Below, one piece after another: positions 38,790-43,013 of a stretch of 64,000 bases of DNA (position 1 is the first letter of the stretch; each line of letters starts with the position of its first letter). The notes beneath the pieces are model-generated. The model worked only from the letters and a program-made list of their open reading frames with translations. It searched no databases and was not told the origin of the DNA. Location of the stretch: contig CAYZWT010000002.1 in the NCBI GenBank assembly GCA_964482225.1, positions 86,680 to 150,679 on the forward strand, given 5' to 3'. The position numbers and the translations under genes were made by a program. The stretch is from an uncultured Anaerolineales bacterium. Its GTDB lineage: Bacteria > Chloroflexota > Anaerolineae > UBA1429.

Positions 38790-41700
38790 ATGATCTACTT
38801 GAAGTTTCACCATCGGCTCACTGTCGGCTTGGTCGCGTTGGCGCTGCTGCTGCAACCCTGGGCATCCCGCTCTATCGCGGCGCAAGGGGTGACGTGGACT
38901 CGGCCTGTCAACCTGTCCCTCTCGGGAGCGGCTTCTGCGCCCCAACTGGTTGGGGGCGAGGGTGAGGCCCTGTATGCTTACTGGTGGGATCAGTTCGATG
39001 GCCTGACGGTATCGAGCCTGGACGCAAATGGCTGGGGCGCGCCGCAGCCTGTGCCCATCTCGGATATCTCTTATGACGCGGGTGGGCAACCAAACGTCAG
39101 CCAAGAGACCGGCCTGATCGTGCGGGTGACGGTGCGCACGCCGGGCACGCTGGCCGGCGACAACGCCGGGCGCGTGAACGCTTTTTTCCTGGGCACAACC
39201 GCCGCCGCGCAACGCCCTCTGCGGCAATCCAGCGCTGCCATCGGAGAGGCCGCCTGGTCCGAGCCGCGCACCATTGCGCCGGGCGCCTCGGCCTGGCGCA
39301 GCGTGACGGGCCCCGATGGCGCCGTGCACCTTGCGATCATGTATCCGGGCCGCGCGGCAGGCAGGCAGCCGGGCATCTACTATATGCGCTCCGATGACGG
39401 CGGCGTCACTTGGGGCGACCTGGTGCCGGTGGCCGAGTCGCTCTATGTGCGCATGGCGACCCAGACCGGCACCCACATGCAGCTCGTTCCCGCCGAGGAT
39501 GGCCGCCTGTTCTTGACTTGGAACGAGCCGGGCACCAACAGGGCGCTCTATAGCTGGAGCTGGGATGGCGGGGCAAGTTGGGCGCGGCCACGCCTGGTGG
39601 ATCCGAACGACCGCACGGCCACCCAGGCCCAGGTCGCCCTCGGGGCCGATGGCGTGGCGCTGATGCTGTGGCAAGGGACCACGTCAGCCGGCGAGCAAGC
39701 ATTGATGATGAGGCGTTCGGAGGATGGCGGTTGGAACTGGACGGCGCCCGAGCGGGTGCTGACTGGGCTGCGCGCCCAAGGGGCGCAGGTCGCGCTGCAG
39801 AGCCTGCCCAATGGCGGCGTGCTGCTGGCGGCCGGGGAGCAGGCCGACGGGCCCGCCCTGGCGGCGTGGCGGCCCGCTGCGCCCGACGGCTCTGCTGCGG
39901 CGGGTTGGTCCAGTATCCTGACGCTGCCCTATCCTGTGCGCGATCTGGATGCGCTGGTCGCCACGGGCGTCGCACGCTGGCAGGCCCGACTGCATGGGGA
40001 TCATGAGCTCGCGTTGATCGGTGCAGATGGCGGGGGCGATGTCTGGCTGCTGGGCGCCCGGCTCTCCGAGCTCACCTGGGCTTATCCCGAGTCGCCTGCG
40101 TGGCTCGAACAGACGCAAAGGCCTGATGCGGGCTGGGCTGCGCCGGTTCAGTTGGCCAGCTCAGGCGTTGTGGCCATGCGGGCGGCCGATGAACCCCTGC
40201 CTGTTGCGCAGCAGCCCACCGCGCCTCCAGTGGAGACCCCGCCCGTGCCCACCGAGCTGCGGCATGTGGTAGAGGTGGGCGATAGCCTTTCAGCCATAGC
40301 AGCGCGCTATGGGGTCTCGCCAACCGAGATTGCTGCGGCCAACGGCATTACGCAGACCAATATCGTGCGCGTGGGCCAAGAGCTGATCATCCCCGGCCAG
40401 GCTGCTGAGCCGGCGCCCGAGGCAGAGCCCGAAGCGACGCCTGAGATCGGAGCGGACCTGGGCGCCCAGCTGCAGCGGGCCGCCACAACCCTAGAGGCCC
40501 GGCCTCAGATCGTCGCGGGCCGCGACGGCCAGTTGCAGGCCCTGTGGTGGGACGCCTTTGAGGGGTTCACCAGCGCCTGGTTCGATGGCGCCGCATGGTT
40601 GCAGCCTCAACGCGCCGGCGCTTTTGTGCTGCCGGACCAACAGAGCTGGTTGCCACCCTTGGGCGCCGAGTTCCTCAGCGATGATGCGGGCCGCGTCCAT
40701 GCCTTTTGGCTGGAGAGCGAGCCCGTGGAGCCCGGCGCGCAGGATCGCACGCTGCGCCACAATAGCCTGACGCTGGGCGCACACACCTGGGGAGAGCCGA
40801 CCTTGGTGGCCTCCCTGGTGGCCTGGCGCATAGCCGTGGGCCGCGATGGCGCTCTGCTTTTGCTCTATACGCGCCCTGCCGCCGGGGGCGCCCCGGCCGG
40901 GCTCTATATCCGGAGCCTGTCGCCGGGCGAAGAGGGGTGGTCGGAGCCGATCCTGCTGCGCGAGTGGGCGCCAGAGACGCCACTGGCGGGCGACAATGCG
41001 CGGCTGGCCCTGGCCGTGGATGGCGACAAGGTCTATGCCGCCTGGGATGATGCCGAGATGGACGAACTGCTCTGGGCGCGCTCCGAGGATGGTGGCCAGA
41101 CCTGGTCTACACCCGCATCCGTTGGCGCGCCCGATCTCGGCCCGCGATGGCCGCTCTTGGCCGCCCTCTCGGGCGATGCCCTGCTCCTCTTCCAGGCCAC
41201 TGCGGGCGCCGAGGCCGGCAGCCTGCATCAGGTACGCATCAACACCAACGGCCAGATCGTGGGCAGCACGGAGGCCGTGCTGCCCGAAATCGTCGCGCCG
41301 CTGCCCGAGGGTGGGCGCATCACGCTCCAAGCCCTGGATGGCCAGACGGCGCTGCTGCTCTCGGGCGTTGGCGGCCAGACCCTTACGGTGGCGACCTGGC
41401 ACCGCGACCGGGCTCTGGACCCGCTGGACGATGGCTGGTCGGCGCCCCAGTCCTTTGGCTTTGGGCCAGAGGGTCCTGTAGGTGGCTCTGAGGGCACGTG
41501 GCAACATCTCGAAGCCGTGCTCTCTGCGGGGCGGTTCACGGTGCTGGGCCTGGGCCCGGAGAGCGATCTGTGGACCATCTCCCGCGAGGCAGCGGACGAG
41601 GGTTGGGCCGAGATCGCGCCGCCCACCTGGTCAGGCGCGGTGCGCATCGGCGAGATGCGAGCCGAGGATCGGGACATTGCCGTGCTGAGCGATGGCCAGG

Positions 41701-43013
41701 GCCGCGTGCATGTCATGTGGAGCGCCAGCCAGACCGAGGGAGGTCCAGGACTGGCTCTCTGGTACGCGCGCTATGCCGATGGCCGCTGGACGCAACCGGG
41801 CGCCCTCATCCGGCCCCAGGAGGGGGTGGCCGAACATCCCAGCCTGGCCCTGGTGGGCGAGCGCCTGCACGCCGTCTGGTCTGGGGGCACGGGTGGGCAG
41901 ATCCAATACGCTGCGTCCTTTGCGGCGGATGCCTACGCAGCCGCAAGCTGGCCTCAACCCACCTGGCTGCCAACCCCATCCACCGAGCGCGACGTCGTCG
42001 CGGCGCATCCGCAGATTCGCGCAGATCTGGCGGGCAGGCTGCACGTGGTCTATGCCGTACCGATCAACCAGACGCGCGGCATTTACTATACGCGCTCCGA
42101 TGATGGCGGCCTCACCTGGTCGCCTGCGCTGCCCGCCTTTGATGCCGCCGCAGAGGGCTGGGCGATGGTGGGGGAGCCTACCCTGGCCGTCGGCCAGAAC
42201 GGGGTTCTGTATGTGGCCTGGCTGCGCATGTCGCTAGTCGGGACGGCGCGCCCGCAGGCGCTCTATCTGGCGCGCTCGATTGATGGCGGCGCCACCTGGT
42301 CGGCGCCCAAGTTGATCGCCGAAGGCGACCTGATGACGCCCGAACTCCTGGTAGCCGGGGCCGAGGAGGTGCATCTGATCTGGCAGGAGGCCAGCGCCGG
42401 GTACGGCGTGTGGCATAGCTATACGCGCGATGGCGGGGATGAGTGGAGTCTGCCTATGCGGGTGCGCGGCCTGGCGCGGTTGGGCGGATACGCGGGCGCC
42501 GCCAGCGACGGCATGGGGCTTGTGTATCTGACAAGCGTGCAGCCCGATGCCAGCGGCCGCACGCAGTTGCTCCAGGCAACCTGGGAATCCGCCAATGAGC
42601 AATGGCGCCTCGAGGAGCCATACCTGCTGCCCTGGAGCGTCCAATCGGCGAGCGGGGCTTGGGTGGCACTGGAGCCGCTTCTGGGCAATCTGGAGGTGGT
42701 GTTGCAGGCCGAGGTCGCCCATGACGAGGGGGCACAAACCGAGTTGCTGCACACGCGCCGGCAGGTCTCGCCGCGCCAGGCGCTGCCCGCGCCTGCGCCC
42801 GGCCTGATCGCCACGCCCACGCCGCAGGCCACGCCTACCGCTCAGCCTACGCCCACCGTGCGGCCCACGGTCAACATCGAGGCGCCCCCTGAAGGCGAGG
42901 GCGCGATCGAGGTGGGCACTTTTACGGTGCCGCTCCTGTCCATCGGCGGGGTGCTGGTCGTGGCCCTGTTGGTGATCGGCGTGCTGGTCGCGCGTGGCGC
43001 GCGGCGGCGCTGA
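38790..43013 (+). CDS. Giant (1407 aa) secreted BNR/Asp-box repeat protein with an internal LysM domain, a PT-rich linker and a C-terminal membrane anchor
   Basis: Signal peptide. At least 7 Asp-boxes (SDDGGVTWG, SWDGGASWA, SEDGGWNWT, SEDGGQTWS, SDDGGLTWS, SIDGGATWS, TRDGGDEWS). LysM (VVEVGDSLSAIAARYGVSPTEIAAANGI) near nt 40258-40395. ATPTPQATPTAQPTPTVRPT linker. C-terminal TM segment followed by RGARRR. Confidence 0.8.
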   Translation: MIYLKFHHRLTVGLVALALLLQPWASRSIAAQGVTWTRPVNLSLSGAASAPQLVGGEGEALYAYWWDQFDGLTVSSLDANGWGAPQPVPISDISYDAGGQPNVSQETGLIVRVTVRTPGTLAGDNAGRVNAFFLGTTAAAQRPLRQSSAAIGEAAWSEPRTIAPGASAWRSVTGPDGAVHLAIMYPGRAAGRQPGIYYMRSDDGGVTWGDLVPVAESLYVRMATQTGTHMQLVPAEDGRLFLTWNEPGTNRALYSWSWDGGASWARPRLVDPNDRTATQAQVALGADGVALMLWQGTTSAGEQALMMRRSEDGGWNWTAPERVLTGLRAQGAQVALQSLPNGGVLLAAGEQADGPALAAWRPAAPDGSAAAGWSSILTLPYPVRDLDALVATGVARWQARLHGDHELALIGADGGGDVWLLGARLSELTWAYPESPAWLEQTQRPDAGWAAPVQLASSGVVAMRAADEPLPVAQQPTAPPVETPPVPTELRHVVEVGDSLSAIAARYGVSPTEIAAANGITQTNIVRVGQELIIPGQAAEPAPEAEPEATPEIGADLGAQLQRAATTLEARPQIVAGRDGQLQALWWDAFEGFTSAWFDGAAWLQPQRAGAFVLPDQQSWLPPLGAEFLSDDAGRVHAFWLESEPVEPGAQDRTLRHNSLTLGAHTWGEPTLVASLVAWRIAVGRDGALLLLYTRPAAGGAPAGLYIRSLSPGEEGWSEPILLREWAPETPLAGDNARLALAVDGDKVYAAWDDAEMDELLWARSEDGGQTWSTPASVGAPDLGPRWPLLAALSGDALLLFQATAGAEAGSLHQVRINTNGQIVGSTEAVLPEIVAPLPEGGRITLQALDGQTALLLSGVGGQTLTVATWHRDRALDPLDDGWSAPQSFGFGPEGPVGGSEGTWQHLEAVLSAGRFTVLGLGPESDLWTISREAADEGWAEIAPPTWSGAVRIGEMRAEDRDIAVLSDGQGRVHVMWSASQTEGGPGLALWYARYADGRWTQPGALIRPQEGVAEHPSLALVGERLHAVWSGGTGGQIQYAASFAADAYAAASWPQPTWLPTPSTERDVVAAHPQIRADLAGRLHVVYAVPINQTRGIYYTRSDDGGLTWSPALPAFDAAAEGWAMVGEPTLAVGQNGVLYVAWLRMSLVGTARPQALYLARSIDGGATWSAPKLIAEGDLMTPELLVAGAEEVHLIWQEASAGYGVWHSYTRDGGDEWSLPMRVRGLARLGGYAGAASDGMGLVYLTSVQPDASGRTQLLQATWESANEQWRLEEPYLLPWSVQSASGAWVALEPLLGNLEVVLQAEVAHDEGAQTELLHTRRQVSPRQALPAPAPGLIATPTPQATPTAQPTPTVRPTVNIEAPPEGEGAIEVGTFTVPLLSIGGVLVVALLVIGVLVARGARRR

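Follow-up and report, generated by a model that had tools for sequence, protein, structure and literature searches.

Gene cluster and domain organization

In the window, a 64,000-nt stretch of DNA from an uncultured Anaerolineae (Chloroflexota) bacterium, a co-directional glycan gene cluster ends with the gene for a 1407-aa BNR/Asp-box protein that contains a LysM domain (Table 1). The gene is a single ORF, as first annotated, and begins with ATG, which a GGGAG ribosome-binding site precedes by 5 nt. It follows the Wzy_C gene by 40 nt and is convergent with a Peptidase_C25 gene. The hairpin between the convergent genes, whose folding energy was matched in 0 of 200 shuffles, is likely a bidirectional terminator. 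A promoter-like site (31683-31711) lies near the start of the NDP-sugar dehydrogenase gene, whose true start probably lies downstream of the listed GTG. The radical SAM enzyme matches the NCBIfam model HpnJ (E 6.7e-58) with 197 bits, below the equivalog cut-off of 578 bits, and the best NCBIfam matches of the GT2 (AglJ, dolichyl-P hexose transferase, ArnC, PpgS, and PgfS) are all under their cut-offs. The TPR domain of the Wzy_C protein is predicted to lie outside the membrane, based on hydropathy and the positive-inside rule.

Table 1 Features of the glycan gene cluster and of the BNR/LysM protein (positions in the window)
Feature	Position	Strand	Basis or remark
NDP-sugar dehydrogenase (UDP-ManNAc/GlcNAc dehydrogenase type)	31702..33117	+	TIGR03026, 424 bits (cut-off 190 bits)
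Hexapeptide-repeat sugar acetyltransferase	33086..33859	+	Pfam Hexapep; NCBIfam WcaF/WbbJ-like, below cut-offs
GT2, polyprenyl-phosphate-sugar-synthase type	33890..35140	+	Four C-terminal TM helices (hydropathy)
B12-type radical SAM enzyme, 553 aa	35137..36798	+	Pfam Radical_SAM; HpnJ-like
Wzy_C (O-antigen-ligase-type) membrane protein with C-terminal TPR, 651 aa	36795..38750	+	Pfam Wzy_C, TPR_19
10-bp GC hairpin	38752..38774	+	Between Wzy_C stop and BNR start; fold -19.7 kcal/mol, z -3.1
BNR/LysM membrane-anchored ectoprotein, whole gene, 1407 aa	38790..43013	+	ORF list and translation
Signal peptide, aa 1-30	38790..38879	+	MIYLKFHHRLTVGLVALALLLQPWASRSIA/AQG; S-I-A/A site (slash, cleavage) read from sequence letters
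Propeller A, aa 31-470	38880..40199	+	Asp-boxes at aa 201, 257, 310
LysM domain, aa 492-535	40263..40394	+	Pfam LysM, E 3.8e-13
Propeller B, aa 560-965	40467..41684	+	Paralogue of A; one canonical Asp-box, aa 765
Propeller C, aa 966-1335	41685..42794	+	Asp-boxes at aa 1103, 1163, 1212
Family signature in C, aa 1091-1124	42060..42161	+	P-x-N-x-x-R-G-I-Y-Y...S-x-D-G-G-x-T-W...F-D-A-A-A-x-G-W
T/P/A-rich stalk, aa 1336-1382	42795..42935	+	pLDDT below 50 in model
C-terminal TM helix (aa ~1383-1401) and basic tail RGARRR	42936..43010	+	Hydropathy; helix in model
15-bp perfect hairpin	43032..43066		Between two convergent genes; fold -41.2 kcal/mol, z -4.7

Public collections already hold an identical protein, with the JGI name "LysM repeat protein". 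The (T/A)P-rich linker, single TM helix, and RGARRR tail described in the first-pass annotation are all present, and the signal peptide, TM helix, and basic tail fit the N-out, C-anchored topology proposed there. Among the curated sorting-domain models searched, none reached its cut-off at the C-terminus. With a pI of 4.7 the protein is acidic, and it lacks cysteine, properties that we list in favor of the reading preferred below.

Pfam identifies BNR_2 in two stretches (E 1.3e-26), and BNR_4 at aa 1072-1171 in module C with 28.4 bits, barely over the 27.3-bit cut-off. Six of the seven Asp-boxes fit S-x-D-G-G-x-[TSN]-W and the remaining one reads TRDGGDEW. Chance matches in a low-complexity protein are ruled out by 2000 shuffles of the protein, which gave the strict pattern 0 times and a loose pattern 0.07 times on average. 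A single LysM domain between modules A and B divides the Asp-boxes into three and one plus three. This domain matches LysM chains in the PDB (E 6.5e-7), is modeled as beta-alpha-alpha-beta between segments of pLDDT below 50, and has disordered P/A/E-rich linkers on both sides (aa ~464-487 and ~540-568). What had been described as two propeller-like halves proved to be three BNR modules, with A and B alignable over their full length (28% identity, 432 aa, E 3e-23).

Two structure models, built on shallow alignments (11 to 12 rows), are all-beta with a mean pLDDT of 78 (mostly 85 to 95 in module C) and approximately seven four-stranded blades per module. Modules A, B, and C are thus each predicted to be a seven-bladed propeller; the expectation of six- or seven-bladed propellers held for the fold, but there are three of them rather than two. 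The nearest folds are PLL lectins (PLL/BP39L) and PL42/GH145, instead of the sialidases and sortilins named in the first-pass annotation, and close folds also take in the lyases and hydrolases PL42, GH145, PL25, and GH74. NanB and NanC are included in the Foldseek list. GH33 structures are matched only locally, over one or two blades with Asp-boxes (E 7e-9 at best, using the family profile), and PDB sequence matches cover only 40 to 90 residues around the Asp-boxes.

A family restricted to Anaerolineae/Chloroflexota genomes

At least 150 cluster representatives match the 1407-aa protein end to end at E below 1e-173. They belong to a large, unnamed, and unstudied protein family, all relatives of which derive from uncultured organisms, and the genomes with family members are Anaerolineae/Chloroflexota MAGs only. 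The usual form has approximately 900 aa, in which a signal peptide is followed by a single A-type propeller and the C propeller, and then by a PT/S stalk that leads to a TM helix and basic tail. An N-terminal hydrophobic h-region is present in 143 of 171 family proteins. Of 170 relatives, 167 have a C-terminal TM helix, 166 a basic tail, and 148 a linker in which P, T, and S make up more than 35%. The LysM domain is real but does not define the protein, being a rare add-on (3/171 relatives). It is missing from P0003, which is 60% identical, and occupies another position in P0165. P0158 and P0163 contain SH3_3 (SH3b) instead. LysM or SH3b was gained independently in family members other than the 1407-aa protein.

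Module C is the best-conserved part of the protein (mean column identity 0.34 versus 0.25 in B, 163 representatives). In the same representatives, N1093 and R1096 are conserved at 97% or more and F1117, D1118, and W1124 at 90% or more; PxNxxRG occurs in 135 of 171 family proteins. Placed by blade topology rather than coordinates, the signature residues lie on one face of C, where blades 3 and 4 have their B-C loop and D-A link. The only conserved polar residues among the 163 representatives are N1093, R1096, D1118, R1324, and Tyr within strands. Consistent with the first-pass annotation, in which sialidase catalytic residues could not be seen, the [FY]RIP (FRIP) motif is absent from all 171 family proteins, and an Arg triad, a nucleophilic Tyr/Glu pair, an acid/base Asp, and an invariant His are not conserved among the 163 representatives. 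No His in module C reaches 90% conservation, the recurring blade His being 30% to 80% conserved. Outside the Asp-boxes, D1118 is the sole acidic residue at the 90% level, so that no classical hydrolase site with two carboxylates can be recognized.

The gene order Hexapep-GT2-radical SAM-Wzy_C(TPR)-BNR is maintained from 100% to approximately 27% identity in every locus with enough flank. In nearly all loci, the Wzy_C+TPR gene either immediately precedes the BNR gene or stands first in the cassette. Related loci often have Wzm/Wzt downstream of the cassette and BNR gene, and distant clusters contain Wzm/Wzt, Wzt_C, pyruvyl transferase, and Acyl_transf_3. The same clusters also encode small paralogues with one propeller, which retain stalk and anchor but lack the patch motifs. 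The BNR gene is indeed the last of the glycan operon and convergent with a protease gene, as noted earlier, but the C25 protease is limited to the closest relatives (the window, L007/L008, and L015) and is absent in L003, which places it outside the conserved unit.

Proposed role in the cell envelope

Since the family always adjoins a sugar-attachment cassette, the 1407-aa protein is probably a major glycan-linked envelope protein. Our preferred reading, with a rough probability of 0.45, is an S-layer-like surface glycoprotein, non-catalytic and embedded in the wall, which is glycosylated or bound by the cassette. After removal of the Sec signal peptide, the protein would be a type-I (N-out) membrane-anchored ectoprotein, with propellers A, B, and C exposed at the end of a flexible stalk rich in T and P, which a single C-terminal TM helix with its cytoplasmic Arg tail fixes to the cell. 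In the host lineage, the LysM bead in the A-B linker may provide a second, non-covalent tie to peptidoglycan. Rather than acting as sialidase-type glycosidases, the propellers would most likely form a structural, glycan-associated envelope layer (an S-layer-like or wall-embedded coat). The Wzy_C+TPR cassette link, the LysM/SH3b gains, and the universal PT/S stalk and TM anchor strengthen the wall-tethered part of the earlier proposal of a cell-wall-tethered S-layer-like protein; its S-layer-like part is still tentative.

The BNR protein may be the dedicated partner of the upstream cassette, in which the dehydrogenase, acetyltransferase, GT2, and B12 radical SAM enzyme would produce a modified sugar linked to polyprenyl phosphate as carrier, to be passed on outside the membrane by the Wzy_C+TPR protein. 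By analogy with PglL/WsfB-type O-oligosaccharyltransferases, which act on S-layer proteins and pilins, the acceptor would most likely be the BNR protein itself, at Ser/Thr of the stalk. The N1093/R1096/D1118/W1124 patch on the membrane-proximal propeller C is a putative docking or sugar-binding site. The analogy's chemistry is not clean, since WaaL-type enzymes use Und-PP-glycans and the GT2 resembles an Und-P-monosaccharide maker; in addition, some Wzy_C proteins are true O-antigen ligases or polymerases, with lipids or glycans as acceptors. Three further points count against the preferred reading: the sharply conserved polar patch could serve catalysis instead of docking, polysaccharide lyases and hydrolases are among the closest folds, and the BNR gene is co-operonic with Wzy_C, in contrast to Geobacillus-model S-layer genes, which are transcribed on their own (PMC2943079).

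It is also conceivable, if rather unlikely, that the cassette makes a wall- or lipid-linked glycopolymer that is unattached to the BNR protein, and that propeller C binds this polymer through the N/R/D/W patch like a lectin. The protein would then organize or retain the polymer, or assist Wzy_C in export and ligation; a parallel is the binding of secondary cell-wall polymer by SLH domains. The seven-bladed PLL and BP39L lectins are the top structural neighbors, and the conserved Trp, Arg, Asn, and Asp on one face are typical sugar-binding types. The additional genes of the distant clusters are typical of polymer synthesis, and the added LysM and SH3b modules show the benefit of glycan or wall binding for the family. 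However, sequence similarity to the lectin families was not found, and the predicted outside TPR on the ligase suggests a protein partner. The paralogues that keep stalk and anchor without the patch indicate that the shared feature is the former.

We consider it doubtful that at least one of the propellers (C being the likeliest) processes the cassette polysaccharide by cleavage, trimming, or transfer, as a lyase or hydrolase similar to PL42, GH145, PL24, PL25, or GH74. Dedicated glycanases are encoded in many exopolysaccharide operons, and the BNR_4 match in C is to the GH145/PL42 family, although it only just reaches the cut-off. The operon's NDP-sugar dehydrogenase yields a uronic-acid-type sugar, PL42, PL24, and PL25 act on uronates (PMC8377490), and the near-invariant R1096 could neutralize a carboxylate. 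However, catalysis in these lyases involves His, or Tyr and His, plus a neighboring His and an Arg (PMC8377490), which contrasts with the His variability of module C. The lone D1118 counts against a classical hydrolase site. Three tandem propellers on a stalk are also unusual for such enzymes, and sequence matches to PDB enzymes are confined to Asp-box blades. A surface-displayed exo-sialidase (GH33) or trans-sialidase is highly improbable and largely refuted, as the BNR_2 match, the local GH33 matches, and the Foldseek listing of NanB and NanC are set against seven blades, no FRIP motif, and no catalytic set.

Comparison with known systems

Like GH33 sialidases and BNR_2 proteins (PF13088), the propellers have Asp-boxes (S-x-D-x-G-x-T-W) at the C-D strand turn of blades, a significant BNR_2 match, and local similarity to NanB-type and Micromonospora-type sialidases. 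They differ from the six-bladed GH33 fold in blade number, in the absent FRIP, Arg triad, Tyr/Glu, and Asp set, and in forming three tandem propellers on a membrane anchor, with similarity restricted to one or two blades. The catalytic His/Tyr of GH145/PL42 (BT3686, BACINT_00347, FoRham1; BNR_4) and of the PL24/PL25 ulvan lyases have no conserved counterpart here, and those enzymes are soluble single propellers from glycan-degrading loci, unlike an anchored tandem array in a biosynthetic cassette. The seven-bladed bacterial lectins PLL, PHL, and BP39L are likewise small, soluble, single propellers, and a sequence-family relationship to them is undetectable.

In haloarchaeal S-layer glycoproteins, a large N-out ectodomain stands on a membrane-near stalk, Thr-rich and O-glycosylated, that leads to a single C-terminal TM segment and a short basic tail. 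The BNR protein resembles this layout in its N-out ectodomain, membrane-near stalk, TM helix, and basic tail. It differs in having propellers rather than an Ig-like ectodomain, in its bacterial host, and in matching no curated sorting-domain model, whereas the archaeal tail is a PGF-CTERM signal processed by archaeosortase. Within the same phylum, another Chloroflexota BNR/Asp-box protein, likened to ours by description only, was detected in proteomes and assigned as an S-layer/cell-wall structural protein (PMC6646388); it is not among the 19 word-indexed matches of the 1407-aa protein.

Compared with the slg (WsaB/WsfB) and PglL/PilO systems, the putative acceptor here is a TM-anchored propeller array instead of an SLH-type S-layer protein, and the GT2 resembles a synthase of polyprenyl-P-monosaccharides more than a member of an Und-PP-oligosaccharide pathway. 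The BNR gene is co-operonic rather than monocistronic as in slg. The slg clusters of Geobacillus and Paenibacillus carry Wzm/Wzt and adjoin the S-layer genes sgsE and sgtA, and the O-oligosaccharyltransferases WsfB and PglL consist of Wzy_C plus a C-terminal TPR (PMC2943079). Common to these systems and the locus described here are a Wzy_C protein with a C-terminal TPR encoded beside a large secreted surface protein and, in related loci, ABC-2 transporter genes, a lipid-carrier glycosyltransferase, and sugar-modifying enzymes (PMC2943079).

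Module architecture of the BNR protein

The BNR gene begins with an ATG that is preceded, five bases upstream, by a GGGAG ribosome-binding site. Its product matches BNR_2 (PF13088; E 1.3e-26, 94 bits versus a 31.4-bit cut-off) and LysM (PF01476; aa 492-535, E 3.8e-13, 49.6 bits versus a 20.9-bit cut-off) in Pfam, with a marginal match to BNR_4. The first-pass annotation had described this open reading frame with at least seven Asp-boxes, a LysM module, a T/P/A-rich linker, a transmembrane (TM) helix and a terminal RGARRR, and these observations were largely right. The Asp-boxes, repeats of the S-x-D-x-G-x-T-W type (aa 201, 257, 310, 765, 1103, 1163, and 1212), are not the chance matches that had been allowed for. 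Shuffles of the protein yield essentially none (seven observed, about zero expected), so the boxes do not result from the abundance of Ala, Gly, and Leu in the sequence.

By sequence, a Sec signal peptide can be read at the N-terminus, with cleavage between SIA and AQG. At the other end, the T/P/A-rich stretch leads into a single, strongly hydrophobic helix and then the basic tail. With a pI of 4.7 the protein is acidic, and it contains no Cys; its absence of Lys is a genome-wide trait rather than one specific to this gene. The predicted signal peptide, TM anchor, and LysM, together with the acidic pI and lack of Cys, are compatible with a secreted, surface-located protein.

The protein is made up of three BNR modules, A (aa 31-470), B (aa 560-965), and C (aa 966-1335), and not of two propeller-like halves as had been proposed. 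A and B can be aligned over their full length (28% identity, E 3e-23), and C is related to both more distantly. Two AlphaFold models (aa 30-965 and aa 560-1407; mean pLDDT 78 each) give all-beta modules of about seven four-stranded blades apiece, in agreement with the propeller fold initially suspected. In these models each Asp-box falls between strands three and four of its blade, the usual place for such boxes in BNR propellers. LysM, located between A and B, is modeled as a small beta-alpha-alpha-beta bead (pLDDT ~81-87) with disordered linkers on both sides; disorder is also predicted for the PT stalk, and a helix for the terminal segment. An "NLS" at the propeller starts was considered as a glycosylation sequon and set aside, since in our reading it belongs to the ordinary blade repeat.

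Family forms and taxonomic range

An identical protein is already public under the JGI name "LysM repeat protein." With an exhaustive profile search (E up to 1e-30), 1934 cluster representatives were identified; the matches of the best 150, all at E <1e-173, span the A-type propeller, the C propeller, and the tail. A word-indexed search returned 19 relatives only, understating a family that the exhaustive profile search places in the thousands. The common form is ~900 aa long and consists of a signal peptide, one A-type propeller, the C propeller, a stalk, a TM helix, and a basic tail; a ~1300-aa form whose A-type propeller is duplicated, like that of the BNR protein, accounts for 34 of 170 relatives. 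The C-terminal TM helix is found in 167 of these 170, the basic tail in 166, and the PT/S-rich stalk, which is disordered in the BNR protein model, in 148.

The weight first placed on LysM was not upheld, as the domain occurs in only three family proteins: the BNR protein, P0002 (a 64% relative, at the same position), and P0165 (elsewhere, at aa 280-323). P0003, at 60% identity, has none. Two further members carry an N-terminal bacterial SH3_3 domain (P0158, aa 60-108; P0163, aa 54-106). These SH3_3 domains and the displaced LysM of P0165 are independent gains of wall-binding modules. That such beads were added several times argues that the ectodomain lies in or on the wall.

In a genome scan, 23 of 24 confirmed loci belong to Anaerolineae, Chloroflexota, or Thermoflexales MAGs or to one unclassified "bacterium" MAG, and none of the 24 comes from a cultured strain. 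The remaining locus, in a Bryobacteraceae MAG, is a weak partial match (E 4e-5, ~117 residues).

The recurrent P-L-x-x-x-G-G...RRR tail raised the idea of a known C-terminal sorting signal. In an NCBIfam scan of the tails of six family members (E up to 10), no curated model for such signals (LPXTG, PEP-CTERM, PGF-CTERM, GlyGly-CTERM, IPTL-CTERM, and others) reached its cut-off, the best being GVDTG_CTERM (17.4 bits versus 29) and IPTL_CTERM (11.1 versus 20.5), and the idea was rejected. Use of the PT linker, TM helix, and basic tail as a general anchor of this genome was not seen in the window, where the BNR open reading frame alone has the set.

Smaller paralogues of 480 to 524 aa are encoded in three distant clusters (locus L004, 18000-19481; L005, 20248-21690; L006, 17280-18854), each with a signal peptide, one C-type BNR propeller, a PS-rich stalk, a TM helix, and an RRR tail. 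The L006 paralogue, the only one aligned with module C, is 27% identical to it, and tblastn gives 26% to 33% identity between the small paralogues and the BNR genes of other loci. The motifs PxNxxRG and FDAAAxGW are missing from them. Their existence suggests either a two-component layer or a broader superfamily of propeller ectoproteins anchored at the C-terminus.

Conserved residues and enzyme identity

Across 163 family representatives, most positions conserved at the 90% level or above are Asp-box residues or Trp and Gly of the blades. Polar residues among them comprise N1093, R1096, D1118, R1324, and two Tyr (Y1099 and Y706) that sit within blade strands. Arg is conserved only at R1096 and R1324 in C and nowhere in B, D1118 is the sole acidic residue outside the Asp-boxes at this level, and no His reaches 90% in any module (blade His, 30% to 80%). 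The conserved positions include no Arg triad, no Tyr/Glu pair, no Glu at all, and no acid/base Asp, and the earlier remark that sialidase catalytic residues could not be seen is borne out across the 163 representatives. The BNR protein has no [FYW]R[IVL]P motif, and none of 171 family members has [FY]RIP. GH33 enzymes have six-bladed propellers, versus about seven blades per module in the models here, and GH33 matches in sequence and profile searches of the PDB are confined to one or two Asp-box blades. An identity as an exo-sialidase (GH33) was rejected on these grounds.

The catalytic apparatus of PL42, PL24, and PL25 is His/His/Tyr/Arg, and the catalytic residues are His48 in GH145 and His85/His105/Tyr150/Arg166 in PL42 (PMC8377490). 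Neither GH145 His48 nor the four PL42 residues have a conserved counterpart in the family, as judged by conservation, and a lyase or hydrolase site of the PL42/GH145/PL24/PL25 type is not supported because conserved His is absent. Gene labels such as "sialidase," "BNR," and "LysM repeat protein" should not be equated here with sialic-acid metabolism.

Gene cluster and regulatory elements

The genes upstream of the BNR gene are closely packed, certain pairs overlapping by 4 nt. The order acetyltransferase-GT2-radical SAM-Wzy_C-BNR is kept, at identities from 85% down to ~27%, in loci L003, L007/8, L010, L012, L013, L021-L024, L026, and L030, and in L016 without a Wzy_C match. In L004-L006 the Wzy_C gene comes first in the cluster, and there are extra carrier-protein, AMP-ligase, and Asn-synthase genes. 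Wzm/Wzt genes lie downstream in many of these loci, where a small C-type paralogue is also common.

Coordinates of features in and around the BNR gene cluster (window positions)
Feature	Position	Strand	Description
Open reading frame	20743-24069	-	1108 aa
Promoter-like site	31683-31711		TTGACG, 17-nt spacer, TATCAT with extended TG
NDP-sugar dehydrogenase	31702-33117
Hexapeptide acetyltransferase	33086-33859
GT2	33890-35140
B12-type radical SAM	35137-36798	+
Wzy_C+TPR	36795-38750		Pfam Wzy_C and TPR_19
10-bp GC hairpin	38752-38774		-19.7 kcal/mol, z -3.1; between Wzy_C stop and BNR ribosome-binding site
BNR gene	38790..43013	+	1407 aa
15-bp perfect GC-rich hairpin	43032-43066		ACAAGGGCCUCGGGA/UCCCGAGGCCCUUGU; -41 kcal/mol, z -4.7
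Peptidase_C25	43083-46145	-	1020 aa, secreted; gingipain family

The GT2 resembles AglJ, Dol-P-hexose synthase, ArnC, PpgS, and PgfS and has four TM helices at its C-terminal end; because of these resemblances and helices, we assign it to the polyprenyl-phosphate-sugar-synthase type. The radical SAM protein, encoded directly after this membrane GT2, has the hopanoid enzyme HpnJ as its best match (197 bits versus a 578-bit cut-off). HpnI and HpnJ are paired in hopanoid side-chain synthesis, and the GT2-radical SAM order echoes that pairing. The B12 radical SAM protein may remodel a lipid-linked sugar. It is kept in most related clusters, with no homologue detected in the stretch of L006 examined. 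A PDB sequence search with the Wzy_C+TPR protein returned TPR proteins only, and hydropathy together with the positive-inside rule predicts that its TPR domain lies outside the membrane. Elsewhere in the window, the only Pfam match of the 1108-aa open reading frame is a partial UDPGP (UTP-glucose-1-phosphate uridylyltransferase) at aa 886-1002, the first ~880 aa having none.

The promoter-like site overlaps the listed GTG start of the NDP-sugar dehydrogenase. Since this enzyme matches its family only from aa 49 onward and has a 447-aa orthologue in L007, its true start is probably ~24 codons (~70 nt) downstream. The site may be the operon promoter. The hairpin ahead of the BNR gene could govern how much the last cistron is expressed relative to the others, or how stable it is. 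The larger hairpin lies where the BNR and Peptidase_C25 genes converge, inside the 69 nt that separate them, and is probably a bidirectional terminator, with no clear U-tract on either side. Scans of the window for Rfam families and tRNAs gave no hits.

The C-terminus of the Peptidase_C25 protein contains three Cys-containing repeats of ~90-100 aa each. In L007/L008 and L015, as in the window, its gene converges on the BNR gene; it is missing from L003. The only NCBIfam match of the protein, to the T9SS sortase PorU, falls far short of the cut-off (E 2.3e-6). The importance first given to this neighbor was not sustained: as only the closest relatives keep it and the PorU score is so low, an obligatory, PorU-like sortase partner was rejected. 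A putative role in processing the C-terminal tail of the BNR protein is conceivable.

Proposed role in the cell envelope

A propeller array with a PT stalk and C-terminal anchor, encoded right after Wzy_C+TPR and lipid-carrier sugar genes, follows the logic of protein O-glycosylation, and this favors a reading in which the stalk is the acceptor. By analogy, we favor the BNR protein as a structural, glycan-linked surface protein. The propeller array would be exported and held on its flexible PT stalk by the C-terminal anchor, and the stalk would receive the glycan, as in protein O-glycosylation systems. Propeller C is the membrane-proximal and most conserved module. Its conserved patch (N1093/R1096/F1117-D1118/W1124) occupies a B-C loop and a D-A link of blades 3 and 4, residues that by topology should share one face, and would be a putative docking or sugar-binding site.

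The strongest rival is a lectin-like anchor, in which the polymer is attached elsewhere and bound by the BNR protein; the present data do not separate it cleanly from the stalk-acceptor reading. A trimming enzyme is the other main rival, weakened by the absence of a conserved catalytic set.

Returning to the stalk as acceptor, a broader and tentative proposal, to which we give about one chance in four as a whole, is that the family is the main envelope protein in a large part of the uncultured Anaerolineae. Tandem seven-bladed BNR propellers would form a surface layer held by a C-terminal TM helix, as in archaeal S-layer glycoproteins; the PT stalk would be O-glycosylated by the dedicated Wzy_C+TPR transferase; and the sugar would be built on polyprenyl phosphate and then remodeled by the HpnJ-like B12 radical SAM protein. 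If true, this would be an undescribed protein-glycosylation and surface-layer system that helps explain the debated multilayered envelope of Chloroflexota.

Sludge, sediments, and hot springs harbor abundant Anaerolineae. The envelopes of Chloroflexota are atypical and still debated (PMC7332563; PMC13319060), and no paper in the literature searched describes this family or identifies an envelope protein of Anaerolineae by name. The BNR proteins form a large family that is restricted to one lineage and constant in layout and partner genes, and they are a concrete candidate for an outer protein layer of Anaerolineae, and the upstream genes with the BNR gene are a candidate protein- or wall-glycosylation pathway. 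The family could also serve as a marker in proteomics, imaging, and antibody work. The components (BNR propeller, LysM, TM anchor, Wzy_C cassette) are of known kinds. Their combination, namely seven-bladed BNR propellers in tandem, anchored by a C-terminal TM helix, restricted to Anaerolineae and in fixed association with Wzy_C+TPR, polyprenyl-phosphate-sugar, and radical SAM genes, was not described in the literature searched.

Both PglL and WsfB are Wzy_C enzymes that end in TPR motifs, and slg clusters contain Wzm/Wzt with the S-layer genes sgsE and sgtA alongside (PMC2943079). As in the PglL/WsfB O-oligosaccharyltransferase systems, a Wzy_C enzyme with a C-terminal TPR is encoded adjacent to the BNR gene, and the synteny is conserved.
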